From assembly GCF_055900595.2 (NCBI RefSeq), contig NZ_CM148325.1: a stretch of DNA of 64,000 bases; one strand, 5' to 3'. Below are positions 883 to 34,426 of this stretch, in pieces. The position numbers and the translations under genes were made by a program. How positions within the stretch are numbered: position 1 is the first letter of the stretch; the number at the start of each line of letters is the position of its first letter. The notes beneath the pieces were generated by a model, which worked only from the letters and a program-made list of their open reading frames with translations, was not told where the DNA came from and did not search any database.

Positions 883-951
883 AAGAAGACCCTCCAACAG
901 TCCATTCTCCATCTTGAAAACAGATAGAGAAAACGTATTCCTTATAAAGAG

Positions 952-1251
952 TTAACCAGTCTGTTTCCCTGATTGGGGTGACGTTGTTTCGACGTGCCCA
1001 CAGTGTGCGAGAGCCGGGGCTATTTGCCCGTGTTCTGGGTCGATGCGGTCATACATAAACCAATTCTGATACTTATGAAAACGGGGGTGACCAAATATCT
1101 TAATTGCAGATTCCAATGTCATCTTAGATTTGTCACGCTCATAGCCGTGATAGGTTGTGTAATTAAGCCCTACTAAATCAACAAATTGCTGTTTTGTTAG
1201 CCTTTCCGAATCTCGCATGATCGCTAACTTTTCACCTTGAGTATTTGACAT
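952..1251 (-). CDS. C: Immunity repressor, P2 C-like
   Basis: 99 aa, MSNTQGEKLAIMRDSERLTKQQFVDLVG...QIAPALAHCGHVETTSPQSGKQTG; resembles recalled P2 C repressor; sits between int and the early operon as in P2. Confidence 0.8.
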   Translation of the reverse strand: MSNTQGEKLAIMRDSERLTKQQFVDLVGLNYTTYHGYERDKSKMTLESAIKIFGHPRFHKYQNWFMYDRIDPEHGQIAPALAHCGHVETTSPQSGKQTG

Positions 1252-1345
1252 ATTTACGAGTACTCCATATAGTTACGCAAAAACAACATTCCTAGCCTAA
1301 AACGGCAAAACACCGTCAAAGGCCGATTAGGCTAAGCAAGCCTCA
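1252..1345. promoter_or_regulatory. Divergent immunity/early promoter-operator region
   Basis: Intergenic between C (minus) and the early operon (plus); inverted repeat TAGCCTAA ... TTAGGCTA about 22 bp apart, at roughly 1303-1337. Confidence 0.45.
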
Positions 1346-1501
1346 ATGAATGGCAACCTTGGAGTGTATCAAAAAATGGCAAAACAACGAGATTTTGAAC
1401 AAATCACGACACATCAGCATTGCCGTCTCTATCCATTAGACGGCTACATCACGATGAACGTGTGCAAAATGAGTTCAACGCAGGCTGGACGCATACGTGA
1501 T

Positions 1502-1993
1502 ATGAGTCTGAGCGACTTACAACAACAGGAGTTTGTTAGCCCAGAGGAGTTTGCATACATCACGGGGCGCACCTACAAAGCAGCCAAAAACATCATGGAC
1601 CGAAACGAAAGCCTGCTTATTAAGGAATACGCCACGCCAGACGCAACACGACCTAAGCGATTTATCAGACTCCAGCACTACTGGGCCGCAATTATCAACA
1701 ACAAAGCATCGCTGACACCACGCGAGCATCTATTTATCAATGAGATTCGAAACAACAAAACGCTTTACCGCGAGATGATGAAAATCAATCTCAAGATTCG
1801 CGAAGGGCGAGAAGTCTCGAAAAAAAACCAAGATACTCCCATCAATCGCAATCAGCGGCATAACACCAAAAGGAGTTTTCCCATGTGCGACCTGAGCAAA
1901 GCAGAGCTAATTGCAATCATATTGTTTGCCATAGATTTTGGTTTTCTTTTGAGCGGCGCAATTCTCCTTCCTGCAATTAACAGGAAAAATTAA
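1502..1993 (+). CDS. Cox/Apl-like excisionase-regulator with an unusual AT-rich hydrophobic C-terminal extension (start uncertain; ORF track starts at 1346)
   Basis: Segment MSLSDLQQQEFVSPEEFAYITGRTYKAAKNIMDRNE resembles P2 Cox (QEFAKLIGKSTGAVRRMIDKG). The ORF continues in frame through an A8 run (about 1823-1830) into an AT-rich tail encoding a TM-like segment, AELIAIILFAIDFGFLLSGAILLPAI. Confidence 0.4.
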   Translation: MSLSDLQQQEFVSPEEFAYITGRTYKAAKNIMDRNESLLIKEYATPDATRPKRFIRLQHYWAAIINNKASLTPREHLFINEIRNNKTLYREMMKINLKIREGREVSKKNQDTPINRNQRHNTKRSFPMCDLSKAELIAIILFAIDFGFLLSGAILLPAINRKN

Positions 1994-2023
1994 TCACCAC
2001 TGCAAATAACAAGAGCCAACAAC

Positions 2024-2239
2024 ATGACCCCAAGACAAGTATTAATCTCCAAAAATGATGACATATTGCACTTTCAAGTAAAATACATAATAGCCACAAC
2101 AAAGGTAGGAACATCAATCTATATACACTATCAGAATTTCTATCTGGAGAGAGTCTTCGAAACGGAAGGAGAAGCCCAGAAGTTTTTGATACACATAAAA
2201 GATTGCATAGAAGGAAAAATAAGACCAGGGGATCAATAA
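2024..2239 (+). CDS. Hypothetical protein in an AT-rich insert (71 aa)
   Basis: ORF in a stretch of markedly lower GC (by eye) than the flanking phage DNA; no recognised family. Confidence 0.35.
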   Translation: MTPRQVLISKNDDILHFQVKYIIATTKVGTSIYIHYQNFYLERVFETEGEAQKFLIHIKDCIEGKIRPGDQ

Positions 2240-2547
2240 TGCGAAAACATTATTCACAACCATATATCCGTAACAGTGCGCCACGCAGCAATAACCGCTG
2301 GAGCCTGCGCGAAACACACGCAACACCAGGCGGTCACGTTGTAAAACAAACTGGGGAACACACCTGGCTGATTGAGCAGGCTGGACTCGTGATCCACAGA
2401 TGCAACCGCAATCCGTTTACCGGAAACCGCATCTTTGCACTGAGCAGCGGCGACAACCAGTTCGGGCAGGATTTCACGCTACACGAAGCCCTGCGAACTG
2501 CCGACCGCTTAATCGCGGGGCGCAGCTTTCAGCACCCGGATTACTAA
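2239..2547 (+). CDS. Hypothetical early-operon protein (about 102 aa)
   Basis: ORF track 2203..2547 uses a TTG start; an in-frame ATG at 2239 is a more likely start. No recognised family. Confidence 0.4.
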   Translation: MRKHYSQPYIRNSAPRSNNRWSLRETHATPGGHVVKQTGEHTWLIEQAGLVIHRCNRNPFTGNRIFALSSGDNQFGQDFTLHEALRTADRLIAGRSFQHPDY

Positions 2548-2590
2548 AGAAAAGTCGGCTTAATAAGCCCTGAGCCAGTCTTAATAAGAC

Positions 2591-2848
2591 ATGAGAGGCG
2601 ATAAGATGAAAAGAGCCTACAAAGAAATCGCTAACGACATACTTCAGAATTATCACCTAACCCTTGCAAACGAGGGTGTCGCCTATGATGAGCAATCGTT
2701 CCGCGCAATGCAGGGTGGGATTCTTGGGCTGTATATCGCCGCCACAGCCAGCGGCGACCTCGAAGCGCTGGCAGAATTAAAGGTTATCTATCCGAAAGAA
2801 CTTGGCGAAGACCTGATTAAACCCTATCTCATTGAGGAGCTGGCATGA
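2591..2848 (+). CDS. Hypothetical early-operon protein (85 aa; alternative start at 2606)
   Basis: ORF track; GAGAGG Shine-Dalgarno before the ATG at 2606. Confidence 0.45.
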   Translation: MRGDKMKRAYKEIANDILQNYHLTLANEGVAYDEQSFRAMQGGILGLYIAATASGDLEALAELKVIYPKELGEDLIKPYLIEELA

Positions 2849-2970
2849 ATATTCTTATCTCGTGGTTAATTCTCATCCTCGCCATTATTTGCGCGGTGGG
2901 AATCATGCGAATTATTAACGGCATTAAAACCATCGAATCATTATTTACTGGCGACAAGCGCCATAAATAA
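2845..2970 (+). CDS. Small single-pass membrane peptide (41 aa)
   Basis: ATGA start/stop overlap with the upstream ORF; GAGGAG Shine-Dalgarno 5 nt upstream; MNILISWLILILAIICAVGIMRII... is strongly hydrophobic. Below the ORF track size cutoff. Confidence 0.45.
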   Translation: MNILISWLILILAIICAVGIMRIINGIKTIESLFTGDKRHK

Positions 2971-3050
2971 ATAACCGGAAATTACCAGAAAGCAAGAAAA
3001 CATCCGCAACGGCGGAGGGATTCCCTTACGCCTGAAATAAGGAGCAGCGA

Positions 3051-14717: not shown

Positions 14718-14871
14718 TTCTCCCCCTCATGTGATTCAGGCAGTTTACTCACCCCTTACAGGCCTCCTGCCATGCCCGGTGTTGTCGGCATTCGCTTACA
14801 ACAAACGCACTTTGTCTGTCCCTGCCCCGTTTTGCCATCATGAGACAAACGATCATCACGAGGGCCCGACA

Positions 14872-19685: not shown

Positions 19686-19830
19686 ACACCCCACCTGGGG
19701 AAATATCGGGATATGGAGCGACAGCCTCCTGGATGCACTGGAAACCTGCAACGCAGACAAACAGGCCATTGAGGCGCTGGAGCGCCGGAGACTCAACCGA
19801 CAGAACGGAGGGGGACATGCTGAAAAGTAA
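19516..19830 (+). CDS. o-spanin lipoprotein (Rz1 / LysC-like), overlapping the i-spanin gene in another frame
   Basis: Lipobox LLTGC in the N-terminal region; proline-rich; overlaps the 3' end of the i-spanin gene. Confidence 0.6.
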   Translation: MNSFAKLLRRMSAPALFLTTVLLTGCANTRNAPLPAPSFRFIPAGLTTGTRPPPFPEHPTWGNIGIWSDSLLDALETCNADKQAIEALERRRLNRQNGGGHAEK

Positions 19831-20281
19831 ATCCCTGAGCACACACATGAGTACAGCGTGCCGGTGGTGCAGGGCCAACCCGGAAAAGTTCACCGTGTTC
19901 ATTGAACGTGGCGGGATAGAGACCACCGGCGAGACGCCGACGTTCGTGTACAACTACCGGCTCGTGATGTTCGTCATGGACTACACGGGCGACCTGGACG
20001 ACCTGACGCTGCCGCTGATTGTCTGGCTGGCAGAGAACCAGCCGCAGTTGCTGCTTAATCCTGAGCGCAACGGCGATATTCAGTTCACGGCGGCCATTAA
20101 CGACGACGACAGTGCGGACGTGCTTTTTGAGGTGCCGCTGCGCGAGCGCGTGCGCGTCACCCGCAGGGATGACGGCACCCTCACAACGGAACATCTGCCG
20201 GAGCCGAAATCGCGCATCCCGCAGGACGGCGACTGGTCGCACATTCTGGAGGATGTGACGTGGGAGGTGACCGGTGACTGA
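19817..20281 (+). CDS. R: Tail completion protein, P2 gpR family
   Basis: ATG 19817 with GGAGGGGG Shine-Dalgarno; position after the lysis cassette. Confidence 0.7.
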   Translation: MLKSKSLSTHMSTACRWCRANPEKFTVFIERGGIETTGETPTFVYNYRLVMFVMDYTGDLDDLTLPLIVWLAENQPQLLLNPERNGDIQFTAAINDDDSADVLFEVPLRERVRVTRRDDGTLTTEHLPEPKSRIPQDGDWSHILEDVTWEVTGD

Positions 20282-20915
20282 CAGGGCTTTCACTGAACTG
20301 GACCGCACAATGCGGACCATCAGTAGCGGACTTTCCCCGCAGGCACTGAGCCGGATTGCCGGGCAGCTTGCCAGAGAGCTTCGCCGCAGCCAGCAACAGC
20401 GCATGCGTGCACAGAAAGCGCCGGACGGTACACAGTGGGAGCCGCGCAGACGGCGCATCAGCCGCCTGCAGCAGCGTATCCGCTTCATCCGGAACAACGA
20501 AACCCGCACGCTGAAAAACTGGCATCACGACGTGAGCAGACACGGACGCACCATCACCGGCTGGGATGAGGATAAGGGAGGCCTGCGCACCTTCTACCGG
20601 GAGGATATCACCCGTTATATTGAAATCAGCACCCGCCGCATCAGCCGCAACGCCACAAAGACCGTACCGATGTTTGCGAAGCTGCGCACGGCACGCTACC
20701 TGAAAGCCAGAGGCGATGCGGGCGGTCTGACCGTCGGTTATGACGGCGTGGCGGCACGCATTGCCCGCGTTCACCAGTTCGGGGAGCGCGACCGGGTGGC
20801 CGCAGGGGTGTATACGGATTATCCGGCCCGTGAACTTCTTGGAATAACACCGGCAGATGAACGGCTGATTGCCGACAGGTTACTGAACCGCATTGCGGGA
20901 GAAATATCATCATGA
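20274..20915 (+). CDS. S: Virion morphogenesis / tail completion protein, P2 gpS family
   Basis: 213 aa at the position between R and V. Confidence 0.7.
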   Translation: MTDRAFTELDRTMRTISSGLSPQALSRIAGQLARELRRSQQQRMRAQKAPDGTQWEPRRRRISRLQQRIRFIRNNETRTLKNWHHDVSRHGRTITGWDEDKGGLRTFYREDITRYIEISTRRISRNATKTVPMFAKLRTARYLKARGDAGGLTVGYDGVAARIARVHQFGERDRVAAGVYTDYPARELLGITPADERLIADRLLNRIAGEISS

Positions 20916-22740: not shown

Positions 22741-23461
22741 CAGGAAAAAAACAGACAGCGCACAGCACAGTACATCACTGCTTCCACCGTCCGCAGGGCC
22801 ATTCATGCGCGCCACAGAGGCGACAGGAGTACGCATCAGTACCATACCGGTGGACGCCGACACCCTGTGGTCGCCGGACCGCTGCCCTGCTCACCTCCTG
22901 CCCTACCTTGCATGGGCATGTTCCGTTGACCGCTGGGACCGCAACTGGCCGGAAGAGACCAGACGACAGGTGATTGGCCAGTCCTGGAAGGTACACCGCC
23001 AGAAAGGAACGGTCAGCGCACTGAGGGAAACAGCCGCAGCATTCGGTTATGAGATGACCATCAGTGAATGGTGGGAGCATGGAGGGCAGCCGGGCACCTT
23101 TACTGTGACCATCGGGGCAGACACTCAGGGCATCGGCCCTGAAACATGGCTGGAGATGGAGGATCTGCTCAATGATGCACGTCCGGTTTCACGTCATATG
23201 ACGGGGCTTTATGCCGCCCTGCGTTCTGGCGTGACGGTTTACTGCGCTGCGGGAGCAGGCTGTGATGAGCTTGTAACCATTCACCAGAAAGCTCGCGCCT
23301 CCCTGGCGGGCCAGGTGACCATCATCGCAGCAGGAGACACACACACAACCGACAGTGTGACCGTACTGCCGGGGGTTCCGTCAGGTATGTACGGGGAGAT
23401 CTGTATCCGTACCGGCGCAGGTATATTCGTGAGTGAGATTGTGGAGGTTATCACCTTATGA
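22733..23461 (+). CDS. I: Baseplate protein, P2 gpI family
   Basis: ATG 22733 with AAGGAGG Shine-Dalgarno; overlaps the J stop. Confidence 0.75.
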   Translation: MSDRKKTDSAQHSTSLLPPSAGPFMRATEATGVRISTIPVDADTLWSPDRCPAHLLPYLAWACSVDRWDRNWPEETRRQVIGQSWKVHRQKGTVSALRETAAAFGYEMTISEWWEHGGQPGTFTVTIGADTQGIGPETWLEMEDLLNDARPVSRHMTGLYAALRSGVTVYCAAGAGCDELVTIHQKARASLAGQVTIIAAGDTHTTDSVTVLPGVPSGMYGEICIRTGAGIFVSEIVEVITL

Positions 23462-24573
23462 ACACCGATTTTTATTCCGTTCTGACGGATGCCGGGCTGA
23501 AAAAACTGGCGGCAGCCGCAGCATCAGGGAATCAGATGAAAATCACCCATATGGCTGTAGGCGACGGAAACGGAAAAGCCGTAACACCCGGCAGGGCCGA
23601 CACCAGGCTTGTCAGGGAAAAATACCGTGCGCCACTGAACAGTCTGGAAGAAGACACAGAGAGACCGGGGCATGTTATCGCAGAAATGGTGATACCTGAA
23701 AAACAGGGAGGGTGGTGGATCAGAGAATTCGGATTATTCGACGAAGACGGCGGAATGATTGTTACAGGCAAATTTCCTGACACATGGAAGCCTGCACCTG
23801 GTCAGGGTGGAGCACGACTGATATCAGTGAAAGTGGTTGTGGCAGTATCACATACAGAAAACATTGTGCTGAAAGTGGATCCTTCTGTTGTCATGGCAAC
23901 CCGGGAATGGGTGAACACAAAAGCAGAGCAGTTAAAGAAAGAGCTCAGACAACCTGATGCAACCACCAAAACAAAAGGCATTGTTCAGCTTAGCAGTGAC
24001 ATCAACAGCACCTCTGAAACGCAGGCTGCCACCCCCGGAGCGGTAAAAGCCGTGAATGATCGTGTGGACGGAAAACAGGACGCGGATCCCACGCTCACAT
24101 CTCTGTCCGGGAAAAATGCACAGCAACTGAGGCAGCTTCTGGGGCTGGGCACGCTTGCCACCCTGAACAGGGGCACCGGTTCAGGGAATGTGCCGGACAT
24201 GAGTCACTTTGCGAGTAAAAAAGCAGACTACGGTTACCAGTGTTTTCCTGGCGGCATAATGATCCAGTGGCTGCGGATCCCCTCAGACCACACAGAAAGA
24301 GCTGTCAGTCAGGAAGCCCGGGTGGCACTAAGCGGCGTGCGACTGTTTTCAGTGGAGGGTAACTGGAACGGTAATAACATGATTAAGACCCTGGCAAACT
24401 ACCAGTGGCCGAGAGTTTTCGGGGCAATTTATGCGACCGTTGCAACCAGGAATCACGGATCTGCATGGCGAGTATATCCGGTGTCCGCGAACAAGGATGT
24501 GCGTGTCGTATCCATTGCCTGGGCGGGAGAAGGTACAGATGACACTTATGTGGTTGGGGTGGGAAGAGTATGA
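23458..24573 (+). CDS. H: Tail fibre protein, gpH-like (371 aa)
   Basis: N-terminus typical of P2-family tail fibres (MNTDFYSVLTDAGLKKLAAA...); host-range-variable C-terminus. Confidence 0.8.
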   Translation: MNTDFYSVLTDAGLKKLAAAAASGNQMKITHMAVGDGNGKAVTPGRADTRLVREKYRAPLNSLEEDTERPGHVIAEMVIPEKQGGWWIREFGLFDEDGGMIVTGKFPDTWKPAPGQGGARLISVKVVVAVSHTENIVLKVDPSVVMATREWVNTKAEQLKKELRQPDATTKTKGIVQLSSDINSTSETQAATPGAVKAVNDRVDGKQDADPTLTSLSGKNAQQLRQLLGLGTLATLNRGTGSGNVPDMSHFASKKADYGYQCFPGGIMIQWLRIPSDHTERAVSQEARVALSGVRLFSVEGNWNGNNMIKTLANYQWPRVFGAIYATVATRNHGSAWRVYPVSANKDVRVVSIAWAGEGTDDTYVVGVGRV

Positions 24574-25016
24574 AAATGATGTGGTCGCCGTCTGTGGGCG
24601 GTTTTTTTGGTGAAGACAGCAGCCATATACCGGAAGATGCGGTGGAGGTTGATGAATCGATGTGGAGCAGGATGATGGAGGGACAACTTGAGGGAAAAAT
24701 TATCGTTAACGGCCCTGACGACCTGCCTGTTCTGGAAGAGCGTCCGGGACCGGGGCCAGAAGAATACCGGCATCAGGCTCGCCTTGAGCTTGCTGACCTT
24801 CGCCGACAGGGGCTGGAACACATAGAGTCGATGCGCTGGCGTGACAAAGCGGTCATGAACAGGCTGGGAGAAGAGGAGAAGCAGGAGTATAACGCCTGGC
24901 TTGACTGGCTCGACGCGCTTGACAGTACGGACATATCAGGGGCACCGGATGTGGTGTGGCCGGTGATGCCCGTCACGGTGGTTCCTGAACATCCTCAGAA
25001 AAAATTGCCGGAGTGA
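24570..25016 (+). CDS. G: Tail fibre assembly chaperone, gpG-like
   Basis: 148 aa; overlaps the H stop. Confidence 0.75.
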   Translation: MKMMWSPSVGGFFGEDSSHIPEDAVEVDESMWSRMMEGQLEGKIIVNGPDDLPVLEERPGPGPEEYRHQARLELADLRRQGLEHIESMRWRDKAVMNRLGEEEKQEYNAWLDWLDALDSTDISGAPDVVWPVMPVTVVPEHPQKKLPE

Positions 25017-25023
25017 ACAGCCT

Positions 25024-25049
25024 CCGGCCTGAGACTGCACTCAGGCCGG
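25024..25049. terminator. Strong hairpin between convergent G and U genes
   Basis: CCGGCCTGAG-ACTGCA-CTCAGGCCGG, a perfect 10-bp stem; no clear T-tract on either side. Confidence 0.45.
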
Positions 25050-25057
25050 AAATTCTG

Positions 25058-25504
25058 TTATCTGCCAGCATTGCGGATGATACCCGAAAGCATATCAGAC
25101 ACCGACGGCATCATTCGCTCCCGCAAATCCTCATCACAGCGTTCCATACTGACAGTGAACTCAATTTTTTTGGCCTTACCGTGGCGGTCAAGTTCGCTTC
25201 GCGTTGTGCGGACAGCCGTTATCACATACATGCCGTATATCTGCCCCACACCGTCAATCAGCGGCCATGGGCGGCCAGTGTAAGCCTGCGTCGTTAAAAG
25301 GCTGAGGGAAACCTCACCGCCGGTAATTTCGGGATAAAGCACACCGGACAACGTGATCTGGTCGTCACCCGCCCCGATATACTGCCAGCTGGCCGAACGA
25401 TTGATGCGTTCATTTTTAACGTGGCGCCAGGTTTTATTATGTTGCAGTTGTTGATGAGGCAGCGTGCGCAACTCAAAAACAAACATGCCGTAAATCATCA
25501 TCAT
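25058..25504 (-). CDS. U: Tail protein, P2 gpU family
   Basis: 148 aa, MMMIYGMFVFELRTLP...WQYIGAGDDQITLSGVLYPEITGG matches recalled gpU (MMM... start, LSGVLYPEITGG). Confidence 0.8.
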   Translation of the reverse strand: MMMIYGMFVFELRTLPHQQLQHNKTWRHVKNERINRSASWQYIGAGDDQITLSGVLYPEITGGEVSLSLLTTQAYTGRPWPLIDGVGQIYGMYVITAVRTTRSELDRHGKAKKIEFTVSMERCDEDLRERMMPSVSDMLSGIIRNAGR

Positions 25505-25515
25505 GCGAGGTACTC

Positions 25516-28500
25516 CTAATCTCTGTCACGGAAACTACCGACTGTCTGGCGGATACGGCGTTCCATTTCCGCACGGACGGCATCACCCACCATTTTTGCC
25601 AGTTCGCGCGGGTTTTGCGTGTGAACATCATGCAGGTGAATATGCAGTTCGCCAGTTAATCCCCATGGTGCCGGATCACTCTGACGCGGTCGGGGCGATG
25701 CGGGGGATATGGGCTGGCGCACAGCCTCAACCACCGGACGGGATGTTGCCGTTACGACGGGTGTCATTACCGGCGCAATATTGCCGGACACTACCGGTTT
25801 AATTACCGGGGAGAGCGTCGGTATAACATCGCCAGCCATAACCGGTTTGATCGCTGGCGAAATAACCGGAGCAACAGACTCAGCCATGACGGAACTGACA
25901 GGCTGAGGCGCTCTCACTATGCCAGCATCGATAACCAGCATGAGCTCGCGTACTGCCTCAAGGACAGGACGGGATATTGCCGCCATCACTGGTGTCATTA
26001 GCGGGGAGAACGTCGGCATGACATCGTGAGTCATAACCGGTTTGATCACCGGCGAAACCACCGGCGTAATATTACCGGACAGTACCGGACGGACGACCGG
26101 AGGAATAACCGGCACATTATTCACGGACACCACCGGCTTCACGACCGGCGACACGTTCGCCGTGGTGGATATCAGCGGCGAAACACTGACAGGCGGTGGC
26201 GCTGGCAGCGGTGGCAACGAAGGCACACTGACCGACGGCACCTGCGGCAGTCTGACAGGTGGCTCACTGACACTACCCGGTAACAGGGAAGCTGCGCGGT
26301 TAAAGCGTTCCTCCTTCCACTCACCACGAACGGCCAGCGCTTCCGGCAGGTTTTTAAAGATAATATCGCCGGGACCAGTGCGTTTTTTCGCCTGTTTCGC
26401 CTCATCCAGCAGGCCACCGGTGTTATCGACGATTTTATTCAGGCGACGCATGGTGCCGGTATTCTCCCCCGTCAGCGGAGCAGTTGCTGCAGGTGCAGGT
26501 ACTGGCGGCTTTTTGTCTTTGTCATTTTGCGGCGGATTAATGACATTAACATCCGCCAGGAGCATGGCGGCTTTCTCGTTCAGCAGCTCCTTCTGCTTCA
26601 GCTCTTCCGCCTTTTTCCGGGCGCGCTCAACCGCCGACGGAATCAGCCCGAGTTTTTCCAGCACCCGGGTTAATGAGTCAATCAGCAGCGTAACCGGACC
26701 GGTCACCAGATTGCTGATAAACTCCCCGACCTTCTGCCCGAACGTCCGCCCGGCTTCCGTGCACTTGTCCAGCTCATCCTTTGTTGTGCTTACCGGCGCG
26801 AACAAATCCACGAACCACTGCCACACACGCCCGATTGTCTGCCCGACATACTCAAACAATGGTCCCAGTGGTGCCACAGCCTCGCGCAGTGGCGTAAGCC
26901 CCTGCCACAGGCCGGACAAGAACCCGCCCACGACAGCCTTCAGCTGGTCCCAGTGCCGCCAGATAAGCACTGCCGCACCGACCAGTGTCGCCACCACAAG
27001 GCCCACCGGACTTAACAGAAAACCCAGCGCCCCGCCAAGTGCGCCCACCGCACCACTCACCATCCCCCACAGTGCGGGCAGACCTGACAGTCTGAGCGCC
27101 AGTATTCCGATACCGCGCCCCAGTGAAATCAGTGCGCCGCCAGGTGAAGTGAACGCAGCCAGCAGACCACCACGCAGCGCGCCAAGTCCCGCCTGCACAC
27201 CACGAAGCCGCCCCGCAACTACGCCCAGCAGTGCAGCAAACCGTCCGGCACCGGAGGTGATACCGACAAACAGCACGCGCCAGCCACCGATACCGCCCAG
27301 CGGACCACCGAGTACGCCGCGCAGCTGCGTCAGTAACGGCAGCGCACGACCGAGGCCGGATGTGCCGGTCAGCAGGGCAAACCCAAGACGCAGTTTTGCC
27401 AGCGGCCCCATCAACACACCAGTGGCAAGTGACAGCGCCCCCATGGCCGCAACCGCAGCCAGCAGTGCACCACCGGCAATCAGCAGTTGTTTTGTCAGTT
27501 CAGGGTGCGCCTGGGCCAGCGCGGTGACTTTCGCAATAACCCGGGTGAACGACTGCGTGACAGAACGCAGCGGCCCGTCAACGAGGTCAGCGACACGGAT
27601 ACGCAGCCCTTCCCATGCGCTGTTCAGTGATTTCAGGTCGCCGTCCAGGTTGTCCGCCATGATTCTGGCGTTTTCTTCCAGTTCGCCGTTCGCTGCCTGA
27701 ATCTCACGCGTCAGGCGCGGCAGGTTTTTTTCGCCTGCCTGTTCAACCAGGCTCATCAGGGAGACATACGCCTCCTGCCCGGCAATATCTGAAAAGAACG
27801 AGACTTTTGCCGCGTTACCGTATTTACGGGTGGCCTGATACAGCTCATACAGGATATCTTCCATCGGGCGCATGTTCCCGTAAGCATCCTGCGTTTCCAC
27901 GCCCAGCTGTTTCAGCGCCTTTGCTGCCGCTTTAGGCGGGTTCACAAGGCGGGACAGACTGGAGCGCAGCGCCGTACCAGCATCACTGCCACGTATCCCC
28001 ATCGACCCAAGCAACCCGGTCATGGCTGCGGTCTGTTCAAGAGACAGACCGAGTGAGGCGGCGACCGGTCCCGTATATTTCATCGTCTCACCAAGCCCGC
28101 GCAGGTCGGTATTGGTGCGGGTGAACGTTGCGGCCAGCGTGTCACCCACGCGGTTCATCTGGTCGGCAGACAACCCGAACTGCGTAAGGATATTTGAGCT
28201 GATATCGGCCGTCTGACCGAGGTCCATGCCGCTGGCCGTTGCCAGATTCAGCACGCCGGGAAGAGCCGCCTGTATCGCCTGCGGCGTGAACCCCGCCATG
28301 GCAAGGAACGCCTGACCGCTGGCAGCATCACCTGCGGTAAACTGCGTTTCGGAGCCGAGTTTAAGCGCCTGTTCGCGCAGCGCCTTAAACTGCGGACTGT
28401 TTTTGTCAATACGGGTCAGCGCCTGGACGCGCGACATCTCCTTACCAAAACTGACCGCCGGTTGCAGGAAACGCCCGGCCGCATAGCCACCTGCCGCTGC

Positions 28501-29058
28501 CGTGCCGACTGCCGTAAATCCACCCGCTTTCAGTTTTCCCGCCATCTCCTGAGCGCGGAAATATTGCTGGCGTGCCTGCGTGACGCGTGCCAGAGTCTGC
28601 CGTTCACGTTCCAGCTGTTCGTTGTATTGCTGTGTTCGCCGTATGGCCTGTTGAATGGTGTTGTCACTGCCGGAAAGCGCAATACCGTGACGCCGCAGCT
28701 CACCACCCAGTTCGCGCATTCGCTGAACTTCACGCGCACGGACCTCATTGAGACGCTCAAGTTTGAGGCTCAAATCGTTCATCAGCTTTTTCTGTTTGTC
28801 AGACAGCACGGTTCCGGCGCGCTGAATTTGCTGAAGTGCGCTTAACTGGCGTTGTGCCCGGGCAATGCCGTTTCCGGCCTTGTTTGCAGCCTCGCGGGCG
28901 CGATCAAATGAACGGGCGTGGCGTTCCAGGTTTTTGATCGCACCCTGCGTTCTCTGTATGGAGTCGCCAAGCTGGCCCATCATGCGACGGGCGTTTTCGG
29001 TGGGACGGGTCAGCCTGTCAACAGCGCTGAAGGCGACCCGTATATCAAGCGTTTTCAT
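25516..29058 (-). CDS. T: Tail tape measure protein, gpT-like (about 1180 aa from ATG 29056-29058; ORF track starts at GTG 29094)
   Basis: Very long helical protein with glycine-rich TM-like middle; an unusual Pro/Val-rich internally duplicated region near the C-terminus (DNA about 25700-26300). Confidence 0.85.
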   Translation of the reverse strand: MKTLDIRVAFSAVDRLTRPTENARRMMGQLGDSIQRTQGAIKNLERHARSFDRAREAANKAGNGIARAQRQLSALQQIQRAGTVLSDKQKKLMNDLSLKLERLNEVRAREVQRMRELGGELRRHGIALSGSDNTIQQAIRRTQQYNEQLERERQTLARVTQARQQYFRAQEMAGKLKAGGFTAVGTAAAGGYAAGRFLQPAVSFGKEMSRVQALTRIDKNSPQFKALREQALKLGSETQFTAGDAASGQAFLAMAGFTPQAIQAALPGVLNLATASGMDLGQTADISSNILTQFGLSADQMNRVGDTLAATFTRTNTDLRGLGETMKYTGPVAASLGLSLEQTAAMTGLLGSMGIRGSDAGTALRSSLSRLVNPPKAAAKALKQLGVETQDAYGNMRPMEDILYELYQATRKYGNAAKVSFFSDIAGQEAYVSLMSLVEQAGEKNLPRLTREIQAANGELEENARIMADNLDGDLKSLNSAWEGLRIRVADLVDGPLRSVTQSFTRVIAKVTALAQAHPELTKQLLIAGGALLAAVAAMGALSLATGVLMGPLAKLRLGFALLTGTSGLGRALPLLTQLRGVLGGPLGGIGGWRVLFVGITSGAGRFAALLGVVAGRLRGVQAGLGALRGGLLAAFTSPGGALISLGRGIGILALRLSGLPALWGMVSGAVGALGGALGFLLSPVGLVVATLVGAAVLIWRHWDQLKAVVGGFLSGLWQGLTPLREAVAPLGPLFEYVGQTIGRVWQWFVDLFAPVSTTKDELDKCTEAGRTFGQKVGEFISNLVTGPVTLLIDSLTRVLEKLGLIPSAVERARKKAEELKQKELLNEKAAMLLADVNVINPPQNDKDKKPPVPAPAATAPLTGENTGTMRRLNKIVDNTGGLLDEAKQAKKRTGPGDIIFKNLPEALAVRGEWKEERFNRAASLLPGSVSEPPVRLPQVPSVSVPSLPPLPAPPPVSVSPLISTTANVSPVVKPVVSVNNVPVIPPVVRPVLSGNITPVVSPVIKPVMTHDVMPTFSPLMTPVMAAISRPVLEAVRELMLVIDAGIVRAPQPVSSVMAESVAPVISPAIKPVMAGDVIPTLSPVIKPVVSGNIAPVMTPVVTATSRPVVEAVRQPISPASPRPRQSDPAPWGLTGELHIHLHDVHTQNPRELAKMVGDAVRAEMERRIRQTVGSFRDRD

Positions 29059-29571
29059 GCTCTGCGTTCCCGCTGCGAAGGGCCGCCCGCTCACGCCAGG
29101 CGACCACCTCGCCGGGATCCATCAGGAAGATTTCAGCGGGAGACCAGTTGAAAATAACGGCGATATCCGCCACAAAGTCTTCAATATGCTCAAAGGGCAC
29201 GACGGTTATCAGCCTGCCGTCGCCGCCACGCTCTTCCCGCCAGAGTCCTGACCGGCCAAAAAATTAACCGCCACCCCGCACAGCTGAATAAAATCAGCGG
29301 ACCCCATGCGCTTAAGCAGAACCTCGTCCAGTCGCGGCGAAGTGACGCGCGGGAGTAACTCAAACATCGCGTCCGTTTTCATGTTCAGCACGTCAAGCAG
29401 TGACAGCCCGCGCAGTGAACCGGCCTGCTGTACAGCAGGCGTGATTTCCACATACGTGATTTTTTTGTTACCGAGCACAAGGGGCGTTTTCAGCGTCACG
29501 CCGCGCTCACTGGTCACGTCCGCCGCATCAGCACCGTCAGTAACAGGGGCAACAACCGGATTTTCTTTCAT
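29045..29571 (-). CDS. E: Tail assembly chaperone gpE, with predicted -1 frameshift extension E+E'
   Basis: E ORF 29209..29571. Slippery T TTT TTG on the minus strand at 29257-29263 inside codons N-F-L; the -1 frame stays open to a TGA at 29045-29047, overlapping the start of T, as in P2 E/E'. Confidence 0.7.
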
Positions 29572-29621
29572 GAATAAAACCTCAAATCAGGGGGCGACGC
29601 CACGCGCCGCCGTGGAAAACA

Positions 29622-30140
29622 TTAACCACCAAGACCAATCGCCGAGCGCACGCGGTCCGGGAAGACGCTTTTGCCGTCCTTGCGTTCGATGTGGTTCAGT
29701 AAATCAATCTCCAGCACCGGACGGTCGTTAATGCTGAGTTTGTAGTAGGTACTTTTGACCGCATAGGTGTGAGACGTGACCTCACCCTGTTTGGCCTCCC
29801 CGGTATCAATTTCCGTCACGCGACCGCGAAGCTCAATCTCGTACAGGTCACTCTGTTCTTCATCGTTGTAGTACTCACCGACAAAGCGCAGCAGCGTACC
29901 GTCAATCGTTCCGCCGTACTTGAGGAACAGTTCGCGGGTCGGCCCGCCCATGGTGAAACTCGCATCCAGCGCGCCGTCATCCAGGCCAAGGTCGATATTT
30001 ACTGCACCGGCCATACCACCACCGCGATAGGCTTCCGTTTTACGGGTCAGTTTGGGGGCCGTGAAGCCGGTCACTCTGCCAATCTGGTTCACCCCGTCAG
30101 TAAACAGCGTGAACACCCTGAGATTTTTTGGTACGGCCAT
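29622..30140 (-). CDS. FII: Major tail tube protein, P2 gpFII family
   Basis: 172 aa between sheath and E. Confidence 0.8.
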   Translation of the reverse strand: MAVPKNLRVFTLFTDGVNQIGRVTGFTAPKLTRKTEAYRGGGMAGAVNIDLGLDDGALDASFTMGGPTRELFLKYGGTIDGTLLRFVGEYYNDEEQSDLYEIELRGRVTEIDTGEAKQGEVTSHTYAVKSTYYKLSINDRPVLEIDLLNHIERKDGKSVFPDRVRSAIGLGG

Positions 30141-31423
30141 TAAGCACCTCCAAGCGTCGCAAATGCAGGACCAAAGAATTCATCAGTAAACGTCTGGTAA
30201 AGTTCCATATCCTCAAGCGGCGGAACGGGCGTGTACTTGTAGCGGATACGCACGCGTCCCTGACGAAGTTCCGTGGTGCTGTTATCCACCACGTCATACC
30301 AGCACTCCGCACCAACGAGACGTCCTGACGTAACCAGCGCATCCAGTTTTGCGCGAATTGCGCTTAACACGTCTTTCACATTAGCAGGGGTCAGCGGGGC
30401 ATCAATCGTTTCAAACTGCGCTTCCGCAACAGAATCAGCCAGCACCTGAGCGGTTCGCGTGTACACCTCAAAGATATACGCCTTCGTTTCCGGCGTACGG
30501 TTGCCCCAGAAGCGGAAACCGTTACGGCGAATGATGGTGGTGATTTCCTTGTTGTTGAGATTGTTGGCATCGCTGTCTTCGGACTGAAGGGACCAGAACA
30601 CCGGGCTGGAAATACCCAGCACATTTCTTACCGGCACGTTGGACAGCGATTTATGCCAGCCCTGTTCGTGGTCAATACGTGCACGTAAACCGCAGGCGTA
30701 CGCCGCAGCCGGGAAGACCTCATTAGCGCCGGATTTCGGGTTATGGGCGATGAAGTCAGGCCAGAGCAGCATAAGTTCGCGCTCGTTAAATCTGGCGCGG
30801 TAGCTGATTGCATCAGCGGGCTTCTTGCAGTTGTGACAGCCCGCGTAGACAAATGCGCGAAGTTTTTCTGCAATTACACACAGGGATTTTGTGACAGCTT
30901 CAGTATCCAGTCCGGGCGCTGCGATGATGCGCGGACGGTAACCGATGGCATCATCCTGTTCAGCTATCAGAAGTGCATACATACCGGTATAATTACCGTC
31001 GTCATCCGTGCCACCAATGACATACTGGTCCTGCGTTTTGTGTGGGTATACAGGATGTGCATCTTCAGACTCATCAATACCAAAAAATGCCCTGTCTTCA
31101 GGATCCAGATGACCGAATGATGTAACTCCTGTATCCGGGGCGCCCTGAGAACTGGCATCAGGAACGCGCACCACAATCACCTTCGTGCTCACCTGGTCGG
31201 CGACAGCCTTAAGTGAACGGTACAGCGTGCCCTTTGTGCCGGTCTTACCCAGCACATCACTGACGCGGGTCAGCAGTATGGGTTTGTTCAGCGGGAACAG
31301 AGTTTCATCCGCGTCATCTGCCGTAGCCACAATACCAATAACACTGGAATCCACATCATTAATGGCGGTGGTAAGGCCGGTACTTTCCCTTACGCGCGCA
31401 CCATGAAAGCGTGTTTCACTCAT
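30140..31423 (-). CDS. FI: Tail sheath protein, P2 gpFI family
   Basis: From ATG 31421-31423 (MSETRFHGARV...); multiple segments match recalled P2 FI (FPLNKP, GTKGTL, QEQGWHKTLSNV, GFRFWGNRT, YTRTAQV, YTPVPPLE). Confidence 0.85.
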   Translation of the reverse strand: MSETRFHGARVRESTGLTTAINDVDSSVIGIVATADDADETLFPLNKPILLTRVSDVLGKTGTKGTLYRSLKAVADQVSTKVIVVRVPDASSQGAPDTGVTSFGHLDPEDRAFFGIDESEDAHPVYPHKTQDQYVIGGTDDDGNYTGMYALLIAEQDDAIGYRPRIIAAPGLDTEAVTKSLCVIAEKLRAFVYAGCHNCKKPADAISYRARFNERELMLLWPDFIAHNPKSGANEVFPAAAYACGLRARIDHEQGWHKSLSNVPVRNVLGISSPVFWSLQSEDSDANNLNNKEITTIIRRNGFRFWGNRTPETKAYIFEVYTRTAQVLADSVAEAQFETIDAPLTPANVKDVLSAIRAKLDALVTSGRLVGAECWYDVVDNSTTELRQGRVRIRYKYTPVPPLEDMELYQTFTDEFFGPAFATLGGA

Positions 31424-31583
31424 ATGTTTCACCCTTGTCTGGCTGGTTGATTTTGCGTAATCATTACCCACGATGCCGCCGGTATCATCTCCTGCCCGTT
31501 CTCACCGTTCGCTTACAACAAACAGCCGTTCACCACGGTCGCACGCCGTGAAAACATGACGGGACACACCACGAGGGCAGACC

Positions 31584-32675
31584 ATGACCGACCTGTTAAT
31601 CAACGTTCCGTCACCGGATATCGAAATCACCATCAACAACAACAGACTCCGTAACGTCACGGAGCGGCTCATGACGCTGTCACTGACCGACAACCGGGGC
31701 TTTGAGGCGGACCGCGTCACCCTGACCATTGACGACGCGGACGGGCAGCTTCAGCTGGCACAGCGCGGCGCACGCCTGAACGTGATGATTGGCTGGCGCG
31801 GGGAGGCGCTGGTTAACAAGGGTGTCTACATCGTTGATGAAGTGACGTGGGAAGGCCCGCCGGACAAACTGACCATCACCGCCAGCAGCGCCGATTTTCG
31901 CGAAGAGTTCAACGTGAAGCGTGAAGTCTCCTGGCACGACGTGACGGTAAAACAGGTTGTGTCAGCCATCGCGCACCGCTACGGCCTGAAAGCACAGATA
32001 AGCGATATCCTCATGGATATCGAAATTGACCACGCAGACCAGACCGAAGAGAGCGATATATCCTTCCTGACCCGCATGGCTGAAATGCTGGGTGCGATTG
32101 CCACCGTAAAAAACGGCAGCCTGTTATTCATTCTGCCGGGTGGCGGAACCGGGCCGGACGGAAGAGCCCTGCCTTCGTTCGCCATTACCCGCAGCAGCGG
32201 CGACAGTCACCGCTTTCGCATTGCTGACCGTGATGCGTATACGGGGGTCCGGGCGCACTGGCTCGATCTGAAGTTCGGGCAAAAGAAAAAAGTGAACGTG
32301 AAGCGACGCAGGGAAGCCGGGAAACAGAAACAGGAGAAGAGCAGCAGCCGGGAAGGTGATTACATGGAGGGCGCGGAAGGGAACGTCTACGTTCTGCGCA
32401 GGACTTACCAGAATGAAGAAACCGCACGACGTGCAGCAGCTGCAAAGTGGCAGGAACTACAGCGGGGCGCGGCATCATTCTCCATCACGCTGGCGCGCGG
32501 TCGTGCCGACCTGTACCCTGAAATGCACGGCAGGGTAACAGGTTTTAAAAGCGAGGTGGACAATCAGGACTGGATTATTGCCAGGGTGGAGCACAGCATA
32601 GATGAAAGCGGCTTCACCACACAACTGGAGCTGGAAGCGAAAATCCCCGAATGGATAGCAGATTCAGGCGGATAA
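31584..32675 (+). CDS. D: Late control / tail protein, P2 gpD family
   Basis: 363 aa at the D position, upstream of ogr. Confidence 0.8.
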   Translation: MTDLLINVPSPDIEITINNNRLRNVTERLMTLSLTDNRGFEADRVTLTIDDADGQLQLAQRGARLNVMIGWRGEALVNKGVYIVDEVTWEGPPDKLTITASSADFREEFNVKREVSWHDVTVKQVVSAIAHRYGLKAQISDILMDIEIDHADQTEESDISFLTRMAEMLGAIATVKNGSLLFILPGGGTGPDGRALPSFAITRSSGDSHRFRIADRDAYTGVRAHWLDLKFGQKKKVNVKRRREAGKQKQEKSSSREGDYMEGAEGNVYVLRRTYQNEETARRAAAAKWQELQRGAASFSITLARGRADLYPEMHGRVTGFKSEVDNQDWIIARVEHSIDESGFTTQLELEAKIPEWIADSGG

Positions 32676-32718
32676 AATTAAAATGAGCCATCTCCACTCA
32701 GCCAGATAAGGAGAAGCC

Positions 32719-32970
32719 ATGTTCCGTTGTCCCCTGTGCGGTGCATCCGCACGTATCCGCACCAGTCGCAATGAAAATGATTCAGGCACAGTTCGCCTGA
32801 AGTACTACCAGTGCAATAACCTCGAATGCGGGATCGGCTTTACCACACTGGAGGGTTTTAACAAATTCACATCAAAACGCGCCCCGTCGCCGCAGGGTAC
32901 AGAGCGGATACCGTGGGAAGATTTTCCGGGATCTCACAGGGGGAATGCTCAGATGAATCTTGATATTTAA
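32719..32970 (+). CDS. ogr: Late-gene transcriptional activator, Ogr/Delta zinc-finger family
   Basis: MFRCPLCGASARIRTSR...YYQCNNLECGIGFTTLE, a C2C2 zinc finger matching recalled P2 Ogr (MFHCPLC...HQCQNVNC). Confidence 0.85.
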   Translation: MFRCPLCGASARIRTSRNENDSGTVRLKYYQCNNLECGIGFTTLEGFNKFTSKRAPSPQGTERIPWEDFPGSHRGNAQMNLDI

Positions 32971-32974
32971 GAAC

Positions 32975-33990
32975 AATAATCAGGTTGAGAGGACATCATA
33001 AGGCAAGTAGATTAACGGCAGATACTTTCCCGCAACCACGGGCAAGTATTTAATTATCCATGATGAAATATGACCTAAATTGTTTTTTGCCCGCCGGAAA
33101 GCGGGCATTTTTTTATTCTTTTGTGGTTATGGGGTCATCAGGAACCACGTGCAGATTATATTTTTGTTTTTTTGGCGTTCCTCCGGCAGCAACGAGTTCA
33201 TCAATAAGACACTGACACGCCTGAACATCCCGGGCATGTCTTAGTTTCACCTTTATTGATTTAACCTTATCCTCACCGGAGGAGAAATGCAGTTCAATCT
33301 CAATATCGTTTCTTCGGAACAATCTCATACGCCCCCCTGAACATATCAGAAATGCTAGTATCGAAAAATGAGAAAACAGTTAGACAGGAGAAACATATTA
33401 ACACAAATCATTTATACCTATAGATGAAATTATAATTTCATTCATGAATATGATAGATAACTATATTGTGAACAAAATGAAAAATGGCTAAATTAAAAAT
33501 GGGCATGGAGGAATGCCTCGTAATCAGTAATACATGATCCATACTTCCTTGTTTTGCCCGCCGGAAAGCGGGCATTTTTTTGGCGGTTACCATCGCCTCA
33601 CCTTCCTGGTTCACACAAAGCAACCCTGATTTTCCATGAAAACTTCAGGGTTGAGCCAAAAGCACAAAGACAGTAGATTAACCAAGGGTACCCGCCACCT
33701 GCCAACAGGAACGGTATCCAGTACGTATTAATGACTGACAATTCACATTGCTGTTTTGCCCGCCAGAAGGTGGGCATTTTTTTGGCAGTTATCATGGACG
33801 CACCTTCATGACACATATTAAGCAGACCTGATTTTTCCATGAAAAATTCATGGTTGAGACAAAAGCACAAAAACAGTAGATTAACCACGGGTGCCTGCCA
33901 CCTGACAACAGGAAGGGGTGTCCATTATCCATGATATACAAACGAAAAGTCTTGTCTTTTGCCCGCCGTTGCGCGGGCTTTTTTTTTGCC
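32975..33990. repeat. Array of diverged att-like repeat units, each ending in a GC hairpin plus T-tract
   Basis: Hairpin GCCCGCC-loop-GCGGGC plus T-run at 33089-33115, 33556-33582, 33768-33792 and 33961-33987. Units share GGTTGAG...AGTAGATTAACC...CCACGGG...TTATCCATGAT; the first unit directly follows ogr. Confidence 0.6.
33113..33328 (-). CDS. Hypothetical small protein (71 aa)
   Basis: ORF track; G-rich Shine-Dalgarno-like sequence upstream; AT-rich promoter-like region with palindrome ATGAAATTATAATTTCAT upstream on the minus strand. Confidence 0.35.
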   Translation of the reverse strand: MRLFRRNDIEIELHFSSGEDKVKSIKVKLRHARDVQACQCLIDELVAAGGTPKKQKYNLHVVPDDPITTKE

Positions 33991-34016
33991 ACCCTCACCA
34001 GTGAGGGTACCATCAT

Positions 34017-34238
34017 TCAGAGGCGCGTAAGCCACCCGGCGTTAACATCCTGCCCGTCAACCCTGACCGCAGAGTCTGAACGGCAGGCACCGGAAGCAGT
34101 ACCAAAAACACCTCTGACAAGTTCCGCCACCTTCCCGATATCATCAGGCGCCACATTCCTCACCTCGACAGCGATCCGTGGCGTACCATCATCGTTAACA
34201 AGCGTGGCTTTAAGGCTGGTACGACGGGCAAATAACAT
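34017..34238 (-). CDS. Hypothetical small protein (73 aa from ATG 34236-34238; ORF track gives 95 aa)
   Basis: GGGAGGGGG Shine-Dalgarno 6 nt before the ATG; MLFARRTSLKATLVNDDGTPRIAVEVRNVAPDDIGKVAELVRGVFG...; no recognised family. Confidence 0.4.
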   Translation of the reverse strand: MLFARRTSLKATLVNDDGTPRIAVEVRNVAPDDIGKVAELVRGVFGTASGACRSDSAVRVDGQDVNAGWLTRL

Positions 34239-34395
34239 CAACACCCCCTCCCTTCGGTTCGTTGCACTGGCAGCACGATACCACCAGGAAAAAGAAAAGC
34301 CCACAACGTCAGGATTGCGGGCTTTTTTTCTTCAAAAATGGACACTACGTGGACACTGATTAAATAATCCTTTCTTAATCAGACTGTTAAAATGC

Positions 34396-34426
34396 TTGAC
34401 CTTCCCCTTGCTGGAAGGTTTAACCT
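34396..34426 (+). promoter_or_regulatory. copA promoter with CueR operator
   Basis: TTGACC -35, then the dyad CCTTCC-N7-GGAAGG (34400-34418) inside a long spacer, typical of a MerR-family (CueR) promoter. Confidence 0.7.

Follow-up and report, generated by a model that had tools for sequence, protein, structure and literature searches.

The tail genes of this E. coli prophage raise the question of why one block of them is read against its neighbours, and how such a block could be expressed. The window is a stretch of 64,000 nucleotides from contig NZ_CM148325.1 (assembly GCF_055900595.2). The analysis points with high confidence to an intact E. coli Peduoviridae prophage in which the segment F promoter-FI-FII-E/E'-T-U was inverted once, long ago, became fixed in a clade, and would be expressed from divergent promoters that share a site.

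Open reading frame calls and PHROG matches place U, T, E/E', FII, and FI on the minus strand (25058-31423), with H and G before them and D and ogr after them on the plus strand. H is an ORF call at 23458-24573 (+). The plus-strand baseplate and fibre operon ends with a G-like tail fibre assembly gene at 24570-25016 (phrog_188, E 3.7e-33); PGAP names the identical gene of GF60 'tail fiber assembly protein'. The first gene of the minus-strand block encodes a gpU-like tail protein (25058-25504; phrog_76, E 1.5e-67), which is 85% identical to its P88 counterpart and 48% identical to P2 U. The gpT tape measure (25516-29058, -; phrog_28, E 5e-186) has 1180 aa from the likely ATG at 29058, and its reading frame runs on to a GTG at 29094 (25516-29094). 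T is also intact and full-length in strains GF60 and CM2, and no tandem DNA repeats were found within it by Tandem Repeats Finder.

The tail assembly chaperone gpE lies at 29209-29571 (-; phrog_103, E 4e-31), and its extension frame E' (29045-29200, -) is entered by a -1 frameshift from E and is called 'GpE family phage tail protein' by PGAP in GF60 and CM2. E' overlaps the start of T (ATG at 29058) by 14 nt, as in P88. A slippery heptamer, T_TTT_TTG, was read from the sequence at 29257-29263 (-), and P2 E has an annotated -1 frameshift site. By the heptamer and the E'/T overlap, the module is predicted to have the programmed -1 frameshift (E/E+E') that characterizes a P2-like tail module. The gpFII tail tube (29622-30140, -; phrog_55, E 5e-54) has the same PHROG label as P2 FII and is a PGAP 'phage major tail tube protein'. 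The gpFI tail sheath (30140-31423, -; phrog_23, E 6e-118) has 427 aa, starts at an ATG at 31423, and is 78% identical to FI of P88 and 42% identical to that of P2. On the plus strand, gpD, a tail/baseplate hub protein (31584-32675; phrog_52, E 7e-150; PGAP 'phage late control D family protein'), is followed by ogr (32719-32970; phrog_603, E 4e-14), an Ogr/Delta-type zinc-finger late activator called 'ogr/Delta-like zinc finger family protein' by PGAP in CM2 and GF60. The cysteine spacing of the ogr product, read from the sequence, is CX2CX24CX4C. The contractile tail set of the Peduoviridae is complete, comprising FI, FII, E, T, U, D, and an Ogr/Delta activator (PHROG E 4e-14 to 5e-186), and the tail proteins are 33-48% identical to their P2 counterparts (tblastn). 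In strain CM2, whose prophage is 99.5% identical, PGAP gives the same coordinates. No tRNA genes were found in the window.

P2 has the same gene set (FI, FII, E/E' with the T_TTT_TTG frameshift, T, U, D, and ogr), but its order is G, fun(Z), FI, FII, E, T, U, D, ogr on a single strand. Since all P2 genes from G to ogr are co-directional, the FI-U block of the window is inverted relative to P2. The original prediction had claimed this inversion, and the ORF strands, the PHROG identities, and the comparison with the P2 map bear it out; the canonical P2 order is absent, with the block at 25058-31423 on the minus strand and G and D on the plus strand. D is likewise cut off from the F operon, and the strands confirm that FI and D point away from each other and G and U towards each other. 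The spacer between FI and D was put at 160 bp and occupies exactly that (31424-31583). In P2, unlike in the window prophage, U and D overlap by 1 nt and a fun(Z) slot lies ahead of FI.

The same arrangement is widespread among relatives. All 80 related IMG/VR loci have the inverted FI-U orientation, as do all 47 phage records whose sheath identity is 51% or more, for which the strands and coordinates of FI and D were compared. These records span five ICTV genera (Xuanwuvirus, Novemvirus, Reipivirus, Reginaelenavirus, and Senquatrovirus) and Serratia KSP20, and the annotated maps of P88, PhiSM, phiT5282H, SEN5, ST16-OXA48phi5.4, 3LV2017, and KSP20 concur. In P88 and PhiSM (Xuanwuvirus), fibre genes (+) are followed by U-T-E'/E-FII-FI (-) and D-ogr (+), as in the window prophage, and the FI/D spacer, about 157 bp long, bears the same activator motif. 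Novemvirus phiT5282H, Reipivirus ST16-OXA48phi5.4, Reginaelenavirus 3LV2017, Senquatrovirus SEN4/SEN5, and Serratia KSP20, with hosts in Enterobacter, Klebsiella, Salmonella, and Serratia, have the same inverted block and a motif-bearing divergent FI/D spacer; their FI is 51-66% identical, and their fibre/U cargo varies. The window prophage fits this clade, as its FI and D diverge over 160 bp (about 150-160 bp in the clade) and its U converges with fibre genes.

In contrast, the canonical P2 order is present in P2, Fels-2, YenM_42.18, Firavirus, ENT90, Citexvirus BR319a, and VHML, and, by coordinates, in ST437-OXA245phi4.1, MLG42, and RE2010. Identity to inverted-clade members versus canonical-order phages is 51-78% versus 42-45.5% for FI, 60-78% versus 46-51% for D, and 56-74% versus 46-47% for terminase P. 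On identity ranking alone, sheath, D, and terminase thus appear to group with the inverted clade rather than with the canonical-order phages. Terminase P gives the relatives the same ranking as FI and D, so it is the genome as a whole, and not the tail module alone, that sets the clade apart. The close relatives are inverted and the distant ones have the P2 order, which argues for a single old, derived, and fixed flip. An ancestral arrangement of the lineage, one of the explanations offered at the outset, is the one that these surveys uphold. The original prediction was to count as refuted if most members of the clade shared the orientation, and the comparison with related prophages found that they do. 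Judged by gene order, the FI-U flip is lineage-wide and ordinary for a clade of viable P2-like phages, and the window prophage adds a member to the already known inverted-layout phages, not a new arrangement. The gene order of P2 does not hold for all Peduoviridae, and the sheath-to-U strand flip marks a large and common clade. No published description of the inverted FI-U arrangement was found in the literature searched, which leaves what it means functionally to inference.

Between the convergent G and U, the terminator scan found a perfect hairpin at 25023-25050, with arms TCCGGCCTGAG/CTCAGGCCGGA. A perfect hairpin had been predicted here and is present, but its stem has 11 base pairs and not the 10 first counted. 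The folding energies of the hairpin, -34.4 kcal/mol for the plus strand and -30.1 for the minus strand (z-scores -5.4 and -3.7), are consistent with a bidirectional terminator. A second hairpin on the minus strand (24997-25028), GCCGGAG...CTCCGGC followed by AATTTTTTCT, overlaps the first and is likely the terminator of the FI-U transcript. Downstream of ogr, the scan gave a rho-independent terminator at 33088-33107 (+), GCCCGCCGGAAAGCGGGC followed by a T-run, and this position matches that of the P2 terminator after ogr. It had also been proposed that the layout removes room for a fun/Z-type insert. The comparison does not support this, because relatives still carry cargo at the convergent fibre/U junction: a DUF262 protein and a hypothetical protein in Reipivirus ST16-OXA48phi5.4, and an invertible alternative fibre segment with a DNA invertase in P88 and PhiSM. 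The G-U gap that holds this invertible segment in P88 is just 41 bp in the window prophage.

The divergent FI/D spacer may be a bidirectional late promoter region. Ogr/Delta late promoters have a TGT-N12-ACA consensus and depend on Ogr (PMC3931495). The criteria applied were a partly symmetric TGT-N12-ACA near -55, a -10 element, and no -35 element. The spacer contains an Ogr-type site, TCT-N12-ACA, at 31500-31517 (TCTCACCGTTCGCTTACA followed by ACAAAC), which belongs to the conserved motif T(G/C)T-N12-ACAACAAA. This motif was found at the expected position in all 53 distinct, otherwise diverged FI/D spacers, and the spacer alignment shows it conserved across six lineages. Its left half-site, on the FI side, is TCT, one mismatch from TGT, in the window prophage and P88-like phages, and a perfect TGT in L004 (a metagenome locus), 3LV2017, SEN5, and KSP20. 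Measured from the centre of the site (31508.5), the FI ATG is 85.5 bp away and the D ATG 75.5 bp. Across the clade, the distance to the FI ATG is 82.5-89.5 bp, and P2 likewise has an Ogr-type site about 83 bp upstream of FI, in its F promoter.

A matching activator site, TGT-N12-ACA, lies at 14783-14800 in the prophage's own divergent P/O (terminase/scaffold) spacer. Within the window, the 16-mer TTCGCTTACAACAAAC of the Ogr-type site is common only to the FI/D and P/O spacers, whose local alignment score is 33 (shuffles 16 +/- 2.2), and the P/O spacer of each phage carries the same motif flavour as its FI/D spacer. A strict TGT-N12-ACA search of the window gave 13 matches against 15 expected, without enrichment, and missed the FI/D site because of its one mismatch; the signal comes from cross-phage conservation and the shared 16-mer, not from the strict search. 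In the spacer alignment, a conserved block GA(T/A)(T/G)AT includes the -10-like hexamer AATGAT (31460-31465, -) of a putative FI promoter with a predicted start near 31453-31454. A partly conserved block CATGAAACCAT includes the -10-like hexamer AAACAT (31552-31557, +) of a putative D-ogr promoter with a predicted start near 31564. Both predicted starts are about 55 bp from the site centre, both hexamers are weak matches, and the predicted D-side leader is short (14-21 nt). No match was found in the FI/D spacer by a sigma-70 consensus scan, as expected of activator-dependent promoters.

From these features, a scheme of expression can be hypothesized. The inversion would have carried the F promoter along with the FI-U block and put its partly symmetric Ogr-binding site directly upstream of D. 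The FI-U block would be read leftwards from its own late promoter, stopping at the G/U hairpins, and D and ogr would form a separate rightward late unit ending at the post-ogr terminator. The single site T(G/C)T-N12-ACAACAAA at 31508.5 would drive two divergent late promoters with starts about 55 bp off. P2 P/O has the same design, with 56 and 55 bp between a single site (centre 3072) and the mapped starts of the two promoters. In the window prophage, the Ogr-type site shared with FI probably drives D-ogr as a late unit of its own, and ogr probably also retains an Ogr-independent promoter, for which tandem TAAAAT -10-like hexamers at 32673-32684 are the candidates; they overlap the D stop, and their distance to the ogr ATG is the same as in P2.

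A different reading of the same spacer is that D-ogr has an independent, Ogr-independent or middle-type promoter and that the conserved motif serves FI only. The weak D-side hexamer and short leader would fit this, as would the degenerate TCT left half-site on the FI side in the window prophage and P88-like phages and the fact that P2 ogr has its own promoter. However, the spacer holds no second TGT-N12-ACA site and no other conserved block, the sigma-70 scan was empty, and the geometry mirrors both P2 P/O, where one annotated site serves both promoters, and PP'/PO' of Smp131 (PMC3931495). A separate promoter of this kind is doubtful, while still deserving consideration. Use by D of another activator site that escaped recognition would be a further alternative.

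If D-ogr is indeed driven from the shared site, it can be proposed, tentatively, that the dyad nature of the Ogr site allowed the inversion to be tolerated and fixed: once turned round beside D, the F promoter would instantly have given a second P/O-like bidirectional late promoter. Two symmetric divergent control regions (P<->O...G and FI...U<->D-ogr) would in that case govern the late genes of the clade, and a late promoter would exert direct positive feedback on ogr, an architecture that is not described in the literature searched. The more general point is modest and is put forward as a proposal: a partly symmetric activator site may render a large operon inversion viable and then split D-ogr into its own late unit.

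The opposite orientation could also have arisen by module replacement, in which a homologous tail module of another phage took the place of the F block. P2-like genomes are mosaic, the fibre module beside U was clearly exchanged among near-identical prophages, and other tail-operon rearrangements have been reported, such as that of Smp131 (PMC3931495). Against this, the similarity ranks of FI and U inside the block are congruent with those of D, terminase P, and J outside it across the clade, and the FI-side promoter geometry is the same as that of the P2 F promoter. Both observations are in line with a simpler history, a single inversion and then vertical descent, and replacement is accordingly improbable.

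A recombination event had also been suggested, and a recent one, or a recent inversion, private to the window prophage might have crippled tail gene expression; the layout is indeed unlike that of P2, Fels-2, and other textbook P2-like phages. A recent event of this kind is nevertheless very hard to sustain: every relative down to 51% sheath identity, in five genera and several host genera, has the same orientation, and phages with this layout form plaques, as the temperate phages P88 and PhiSM do (PMC5285337, PMC6456863). In addition, all genes are intact, the frameshift site included, and no inverted repeats were found flanking the FI-U block or left at its junctions. An assembly artefact, with the contig mis-joined at about 25.0 kb and 31.5 kb, has nothing but the unusual gene order in its favour and a negligible probability, because complete E. 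coli chromosomes (CM2, CS5L, Ch1, and others) align in one piece over the FI/D junction, GF60 is identical and collinear over the G/U junction, and two independent IMG/VR contigs, L004 and the isolate genome L003 (98.6% over 9.2 kb), bridge the FI/D junction.

From U to ogr, complete E. coli chromosomes, including CM2, CS5L, Ch1, and GF60, are 94-99.8% identical to the window at the DNA level, and their FI/D spacer is the same. CM2 also shares the insertion beside copA with the window prophage. The host was recognised from the copA/ybaP flank, which matches E. coli at 100% identity. The tail fibre module is swapped in most near-identical prophages, in which homology begins at about 25083; at this point, at the fibre module beside U, homology to CM2 and L003 stops. 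More distantly, protein identity to P88 is 78% for FI, 77% for D, 85% for U, and 79% for J, whereas the H/G fibre genes are unlike those of P88 and PhiSM, and T has 1180 aa against 935 aa in P88. By ICTV convention, members of a genus share about 70% or more nucleotide identity genome-wide. The 9.2-kb tail region, the part compared, matches P88 at about 75% over 45% of its length, which suggests a place for the window prophage beyond or at the margin of Xuanwuvirus. An exact 44-mer of the FI/D spacer had no match in a one-genome-per-species collection, and a plasmid collection gave P88-like matches only, at about 75% identity. About 1,090 of 5,426 complete E. coli genomes contain related sequence. 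The GF60 copy lies at a different locus and carries an IS21-family element within FI.

The window carries a prophage of the P2 family within a chromosome of Escherichia coli; the copA/ybaP flanking sequence matches E. coli strains at 100% identity. The left window edge truncates the integrase, which is adjoined by six hypothetical genes, and small ORFs without an assigned function lie between ogr and copA. Both prophage ends (window 1-3000 and 33000-34400) are low in GC (42-45%). On the plus strand, H (23458-24573) and G (24570-25016) close the series of baseplate and fibre genes. They are followed on the minus strand by U (25058-25504), the tape measure T (25516-29058), the E' frame (29045-29200), the chaperone E (29209-29571), the tube FII (29622-30140), and the sheath FI (30140-31423), collectively the F block. 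The hub gene D (31584-32675), the late activator ogr (32719-32970), and a rho-independent terminator 3' of ogr (33088-33107) are again on the plus strand. Apart from the E' frame, the genes from U to ogr were identified by PHROG matches (E-values 4e-14 to 5e-186), and the PGAP annotations of the E. coli CM2 and GF60 prophages, which are 99.5-99.8% identical, concur. The tail module is intact. E/E' has its slippery heptamer T_TTT_TTG in the correct frame (29257-29263), and, as in P88, the E' frame and the T start share 14 nt. In P2, a single strand carries G, fun(Z), FI, FII, E, T, U, D, and ogr; therefore, the original prediction that the F block is inverted relative to P2 was correct.

The original prediction left the origin of this inversion between an ancestral arrangement, a recombination event, and an assembly artefact, and named the same orientation in most clade members as evidence against an anomaly. 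This orientation was found throughout. Searching IMG/VR with the sheath protein as query gave 80 loci, all with D (and ogr where present) directly upstream of FI on the opposite strand; where the contig extends to the fibre/baseplate genes, these are convergent with U. Coordinate comparison of FI and D in those records of the phage collection with sheaths at least 51% identical placed the two genes on opposite strands, 150-250 bp apart, in 47 of 47. The 47 come from Xuanwuvirus (P88, PhiSM, P884B11, and others), Novemvirus (phiT5282H), Reipivirus (ST16-OXA48phi5.4), Reginaelenavirus (3LV2017), Senquatrovirus (SEN4/SEN5), and Serratia phage KSP20, and the annotated maps concur. Both P88 and PhiSM have contractile tails, can be induced, and form plaques (PMC5285337, PMC6456863), so the inverted layout is functional. 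The block is matched in 1,091 of 5,426 complete E. coli genomes, mostly at 60-80% identity, a P88-like level; in about 30 of them its identity is at least 94% and the FI/D junction is collinear.

An ancestral arrangement of the lineage is the origin that these data support, since the layout is shared across relatives with at least 51% sheath identity and P2 order is found outside them. P2 order is kept in the next-closest phages (sheath identity 42-45.5%), P2, Fels-2, Firavirus YenM_42.18, and ENT90; by coordinates in ST437-OXA245phi4.1, MLG42, and RE2010; and in the distant outgroups Citexvirus BR319a and VHML, outside Peduoviridae. Ranking of the relatives by terminase P is the same as by FI and D. 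Read most simply, these comparisons point to a single old inversion that arose within Peduoviridae as a derived state and was passed down through a clade of several genera. A recent recombination event is contradicted by the uniform orientation in all records and loci; no surviving inverted repeats were found at the block junctions. An assembly artefact or a strain-specific rearrangement is excluded as far as assemblies allow, because the layout recurs in IMG/VR loci, phage records, and chromosomes: three close relatives from other assemblies cross the FI/D junction (L004, L005, and L003, whose 9.2-kb alignment of 98.6% identity runs from within the U 3' end past ogr), and GF60 is also identical across the G/U junction.

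The inverted layout is thus no anomaly; the inversion was correctly observed, and its biology is ordinary. The prophage joins a known, widespread P2-like clade with a fixed inverted F block, an arrangement that many classified genomes in public databases already show, and literature searches found no paper discussing it. The nearest named phage, P88, matches part of the block at about 75% DNA identity, and the prophage therefore probably represents a distinct species or genus-level lineage. Some copies of the same prophage type are decaying: in an IMG/VR contig (L048), D is split by a roughly 1.2-kb insertion, and in GF60 (locus L090, 9149-11690) an IS21-family element (ISSso4, istA/istB) splits the sheath gene. 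The GF60 copy occupies another locus (ihfA/pheT), with a hicAB toxin-antitoxin pair at its ogr-distal end.

The 41-bp G/U gap contains a hairpin (25023-25050; free energies of the two strands, -34.4 and -30.1 kcal/mol) whose stem is perfect as predicted, with 11 pairs rather than 10. On the minus strand, a second hairpin with a T-run overlaps it. The proposal that the layout leaves no room for a fun/Z-type insert did not hold, as the fibre/U junction of relatives still carries cargo. This is an invertase and alternative fibre segment in P88 and PhiSM, and a DUF262 protein with a hypothetical protein in the Klebsiella phage ST16-OXA48phi5.4 (28611-30514). The DUF262 pair may be defence cargo in the slot corresponding to P2 fun(Z).

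The FI/D spacer (31424-31583) is exactly 160 bp; U and D of P2 overlap by 1 nt. The suggested search for late-promoter motifs in the spacer found a conserved Ogr-type motif, GTT(G/C)T-N12-ACAACAAA (31500-31517), the only spacer block conserved across all six lineages. Relative to the consensus TGT-N12-ACA (PMC3931495), the site of the window reads TCT-N12-ACA, and four lineages have a perfect TGT. The motif occurs at the same place in all 53 distinct spacers (from 86 loci). Across the clade, 82.5-89.5 bp separate its centre from the FI ATG, compared with 83 bp for the Ogr-binding site of the P2 F promoter; this constancy suggests that the F promoter moved with the block. The -10-like hexamers AATGAT (31465 to 31460, minus strand) and AAACAT (31552-31557, plus strand), both within partly conserved blocks, give predicted starts about 55 bp from the site centre, one on each side. 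Similarly, the divergent P and O promoters of P2 have one annotated activator site in common, centred 56 and 55 bp from the mapped starts. The 16-mer TTCGCTTACAACAAAC has only two copies in the 64-kb window, in the same orientation, at the FI/D site and the P/O site (14783-14800). Local alignment of the two spacers scored 33 (shuffles, 16 ± 2.2), and in each relative the P/O site is spelled as that phage's own FI/D site. The conservation, hexamer geometry, and shared 16-mer led us to propose that the inversion would have brought a dyad-like activator site beside D, and that this site would drive FI to U leftwards and D-ogr rightwards. We consider this shared-site model, with its predicted starts, marginally probable. 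The P/O spacer itself (154 bp, 14718-14871) carries a perfect TGTTGT-N12-ACAACA dyad.

Promoter-like sequence suggests that ogr has probably also retained a promoter of its own. Two TAAAAT hexamers in tandem (32673-32684) overlap the stop codon of D, stop 35 nt short of the ogr ATG, as far from it as the annotated -10 of P2, and look like an Ogr-independent promoter. The Ogr cysteine spacing is CX2CX24CX4C, whereas P2 Ogr has CX2CX22CX4C. S and V overlap (20274-20281, within 19733-20915), so no intergenic space is left for a V promoter of the P2 type, and in the clade the genes from O to G may be a single long operon.

T is 1180 aa long; its counterparts in P88 and P2 have 935 and 815 aa, respectively. 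The difference is due to an insertion of about 185 aa (25746-26301, minus strand; residues ~920-1105), Pro- and Val-rich with repeated 'SPVIKPV...RPVxEAVR' stretches, and a longer tail is predicted. PGAP marks T of GF60 and CM2 as a pseudogene; the ORF is intact and 99.5-100% identical, and the label looks like an annotation artefact. The H/G fibre module (23458-25083) is mosaic. Homology to otherwise 98-99% identical prophages (L003, E. coli CM2 and CS5L, and others) ends at about 25083, inside the U 3' end, and their H is only about 40% identical; the exact module is shared with GF60. In the record of Citrobacter phage Shae_phiSM (OR565851.1), the deposited product names are shifted, with the sheath gene named 'late control gene D protein' and gene D named 'ogr/Delta-like zinc finger family protein'.
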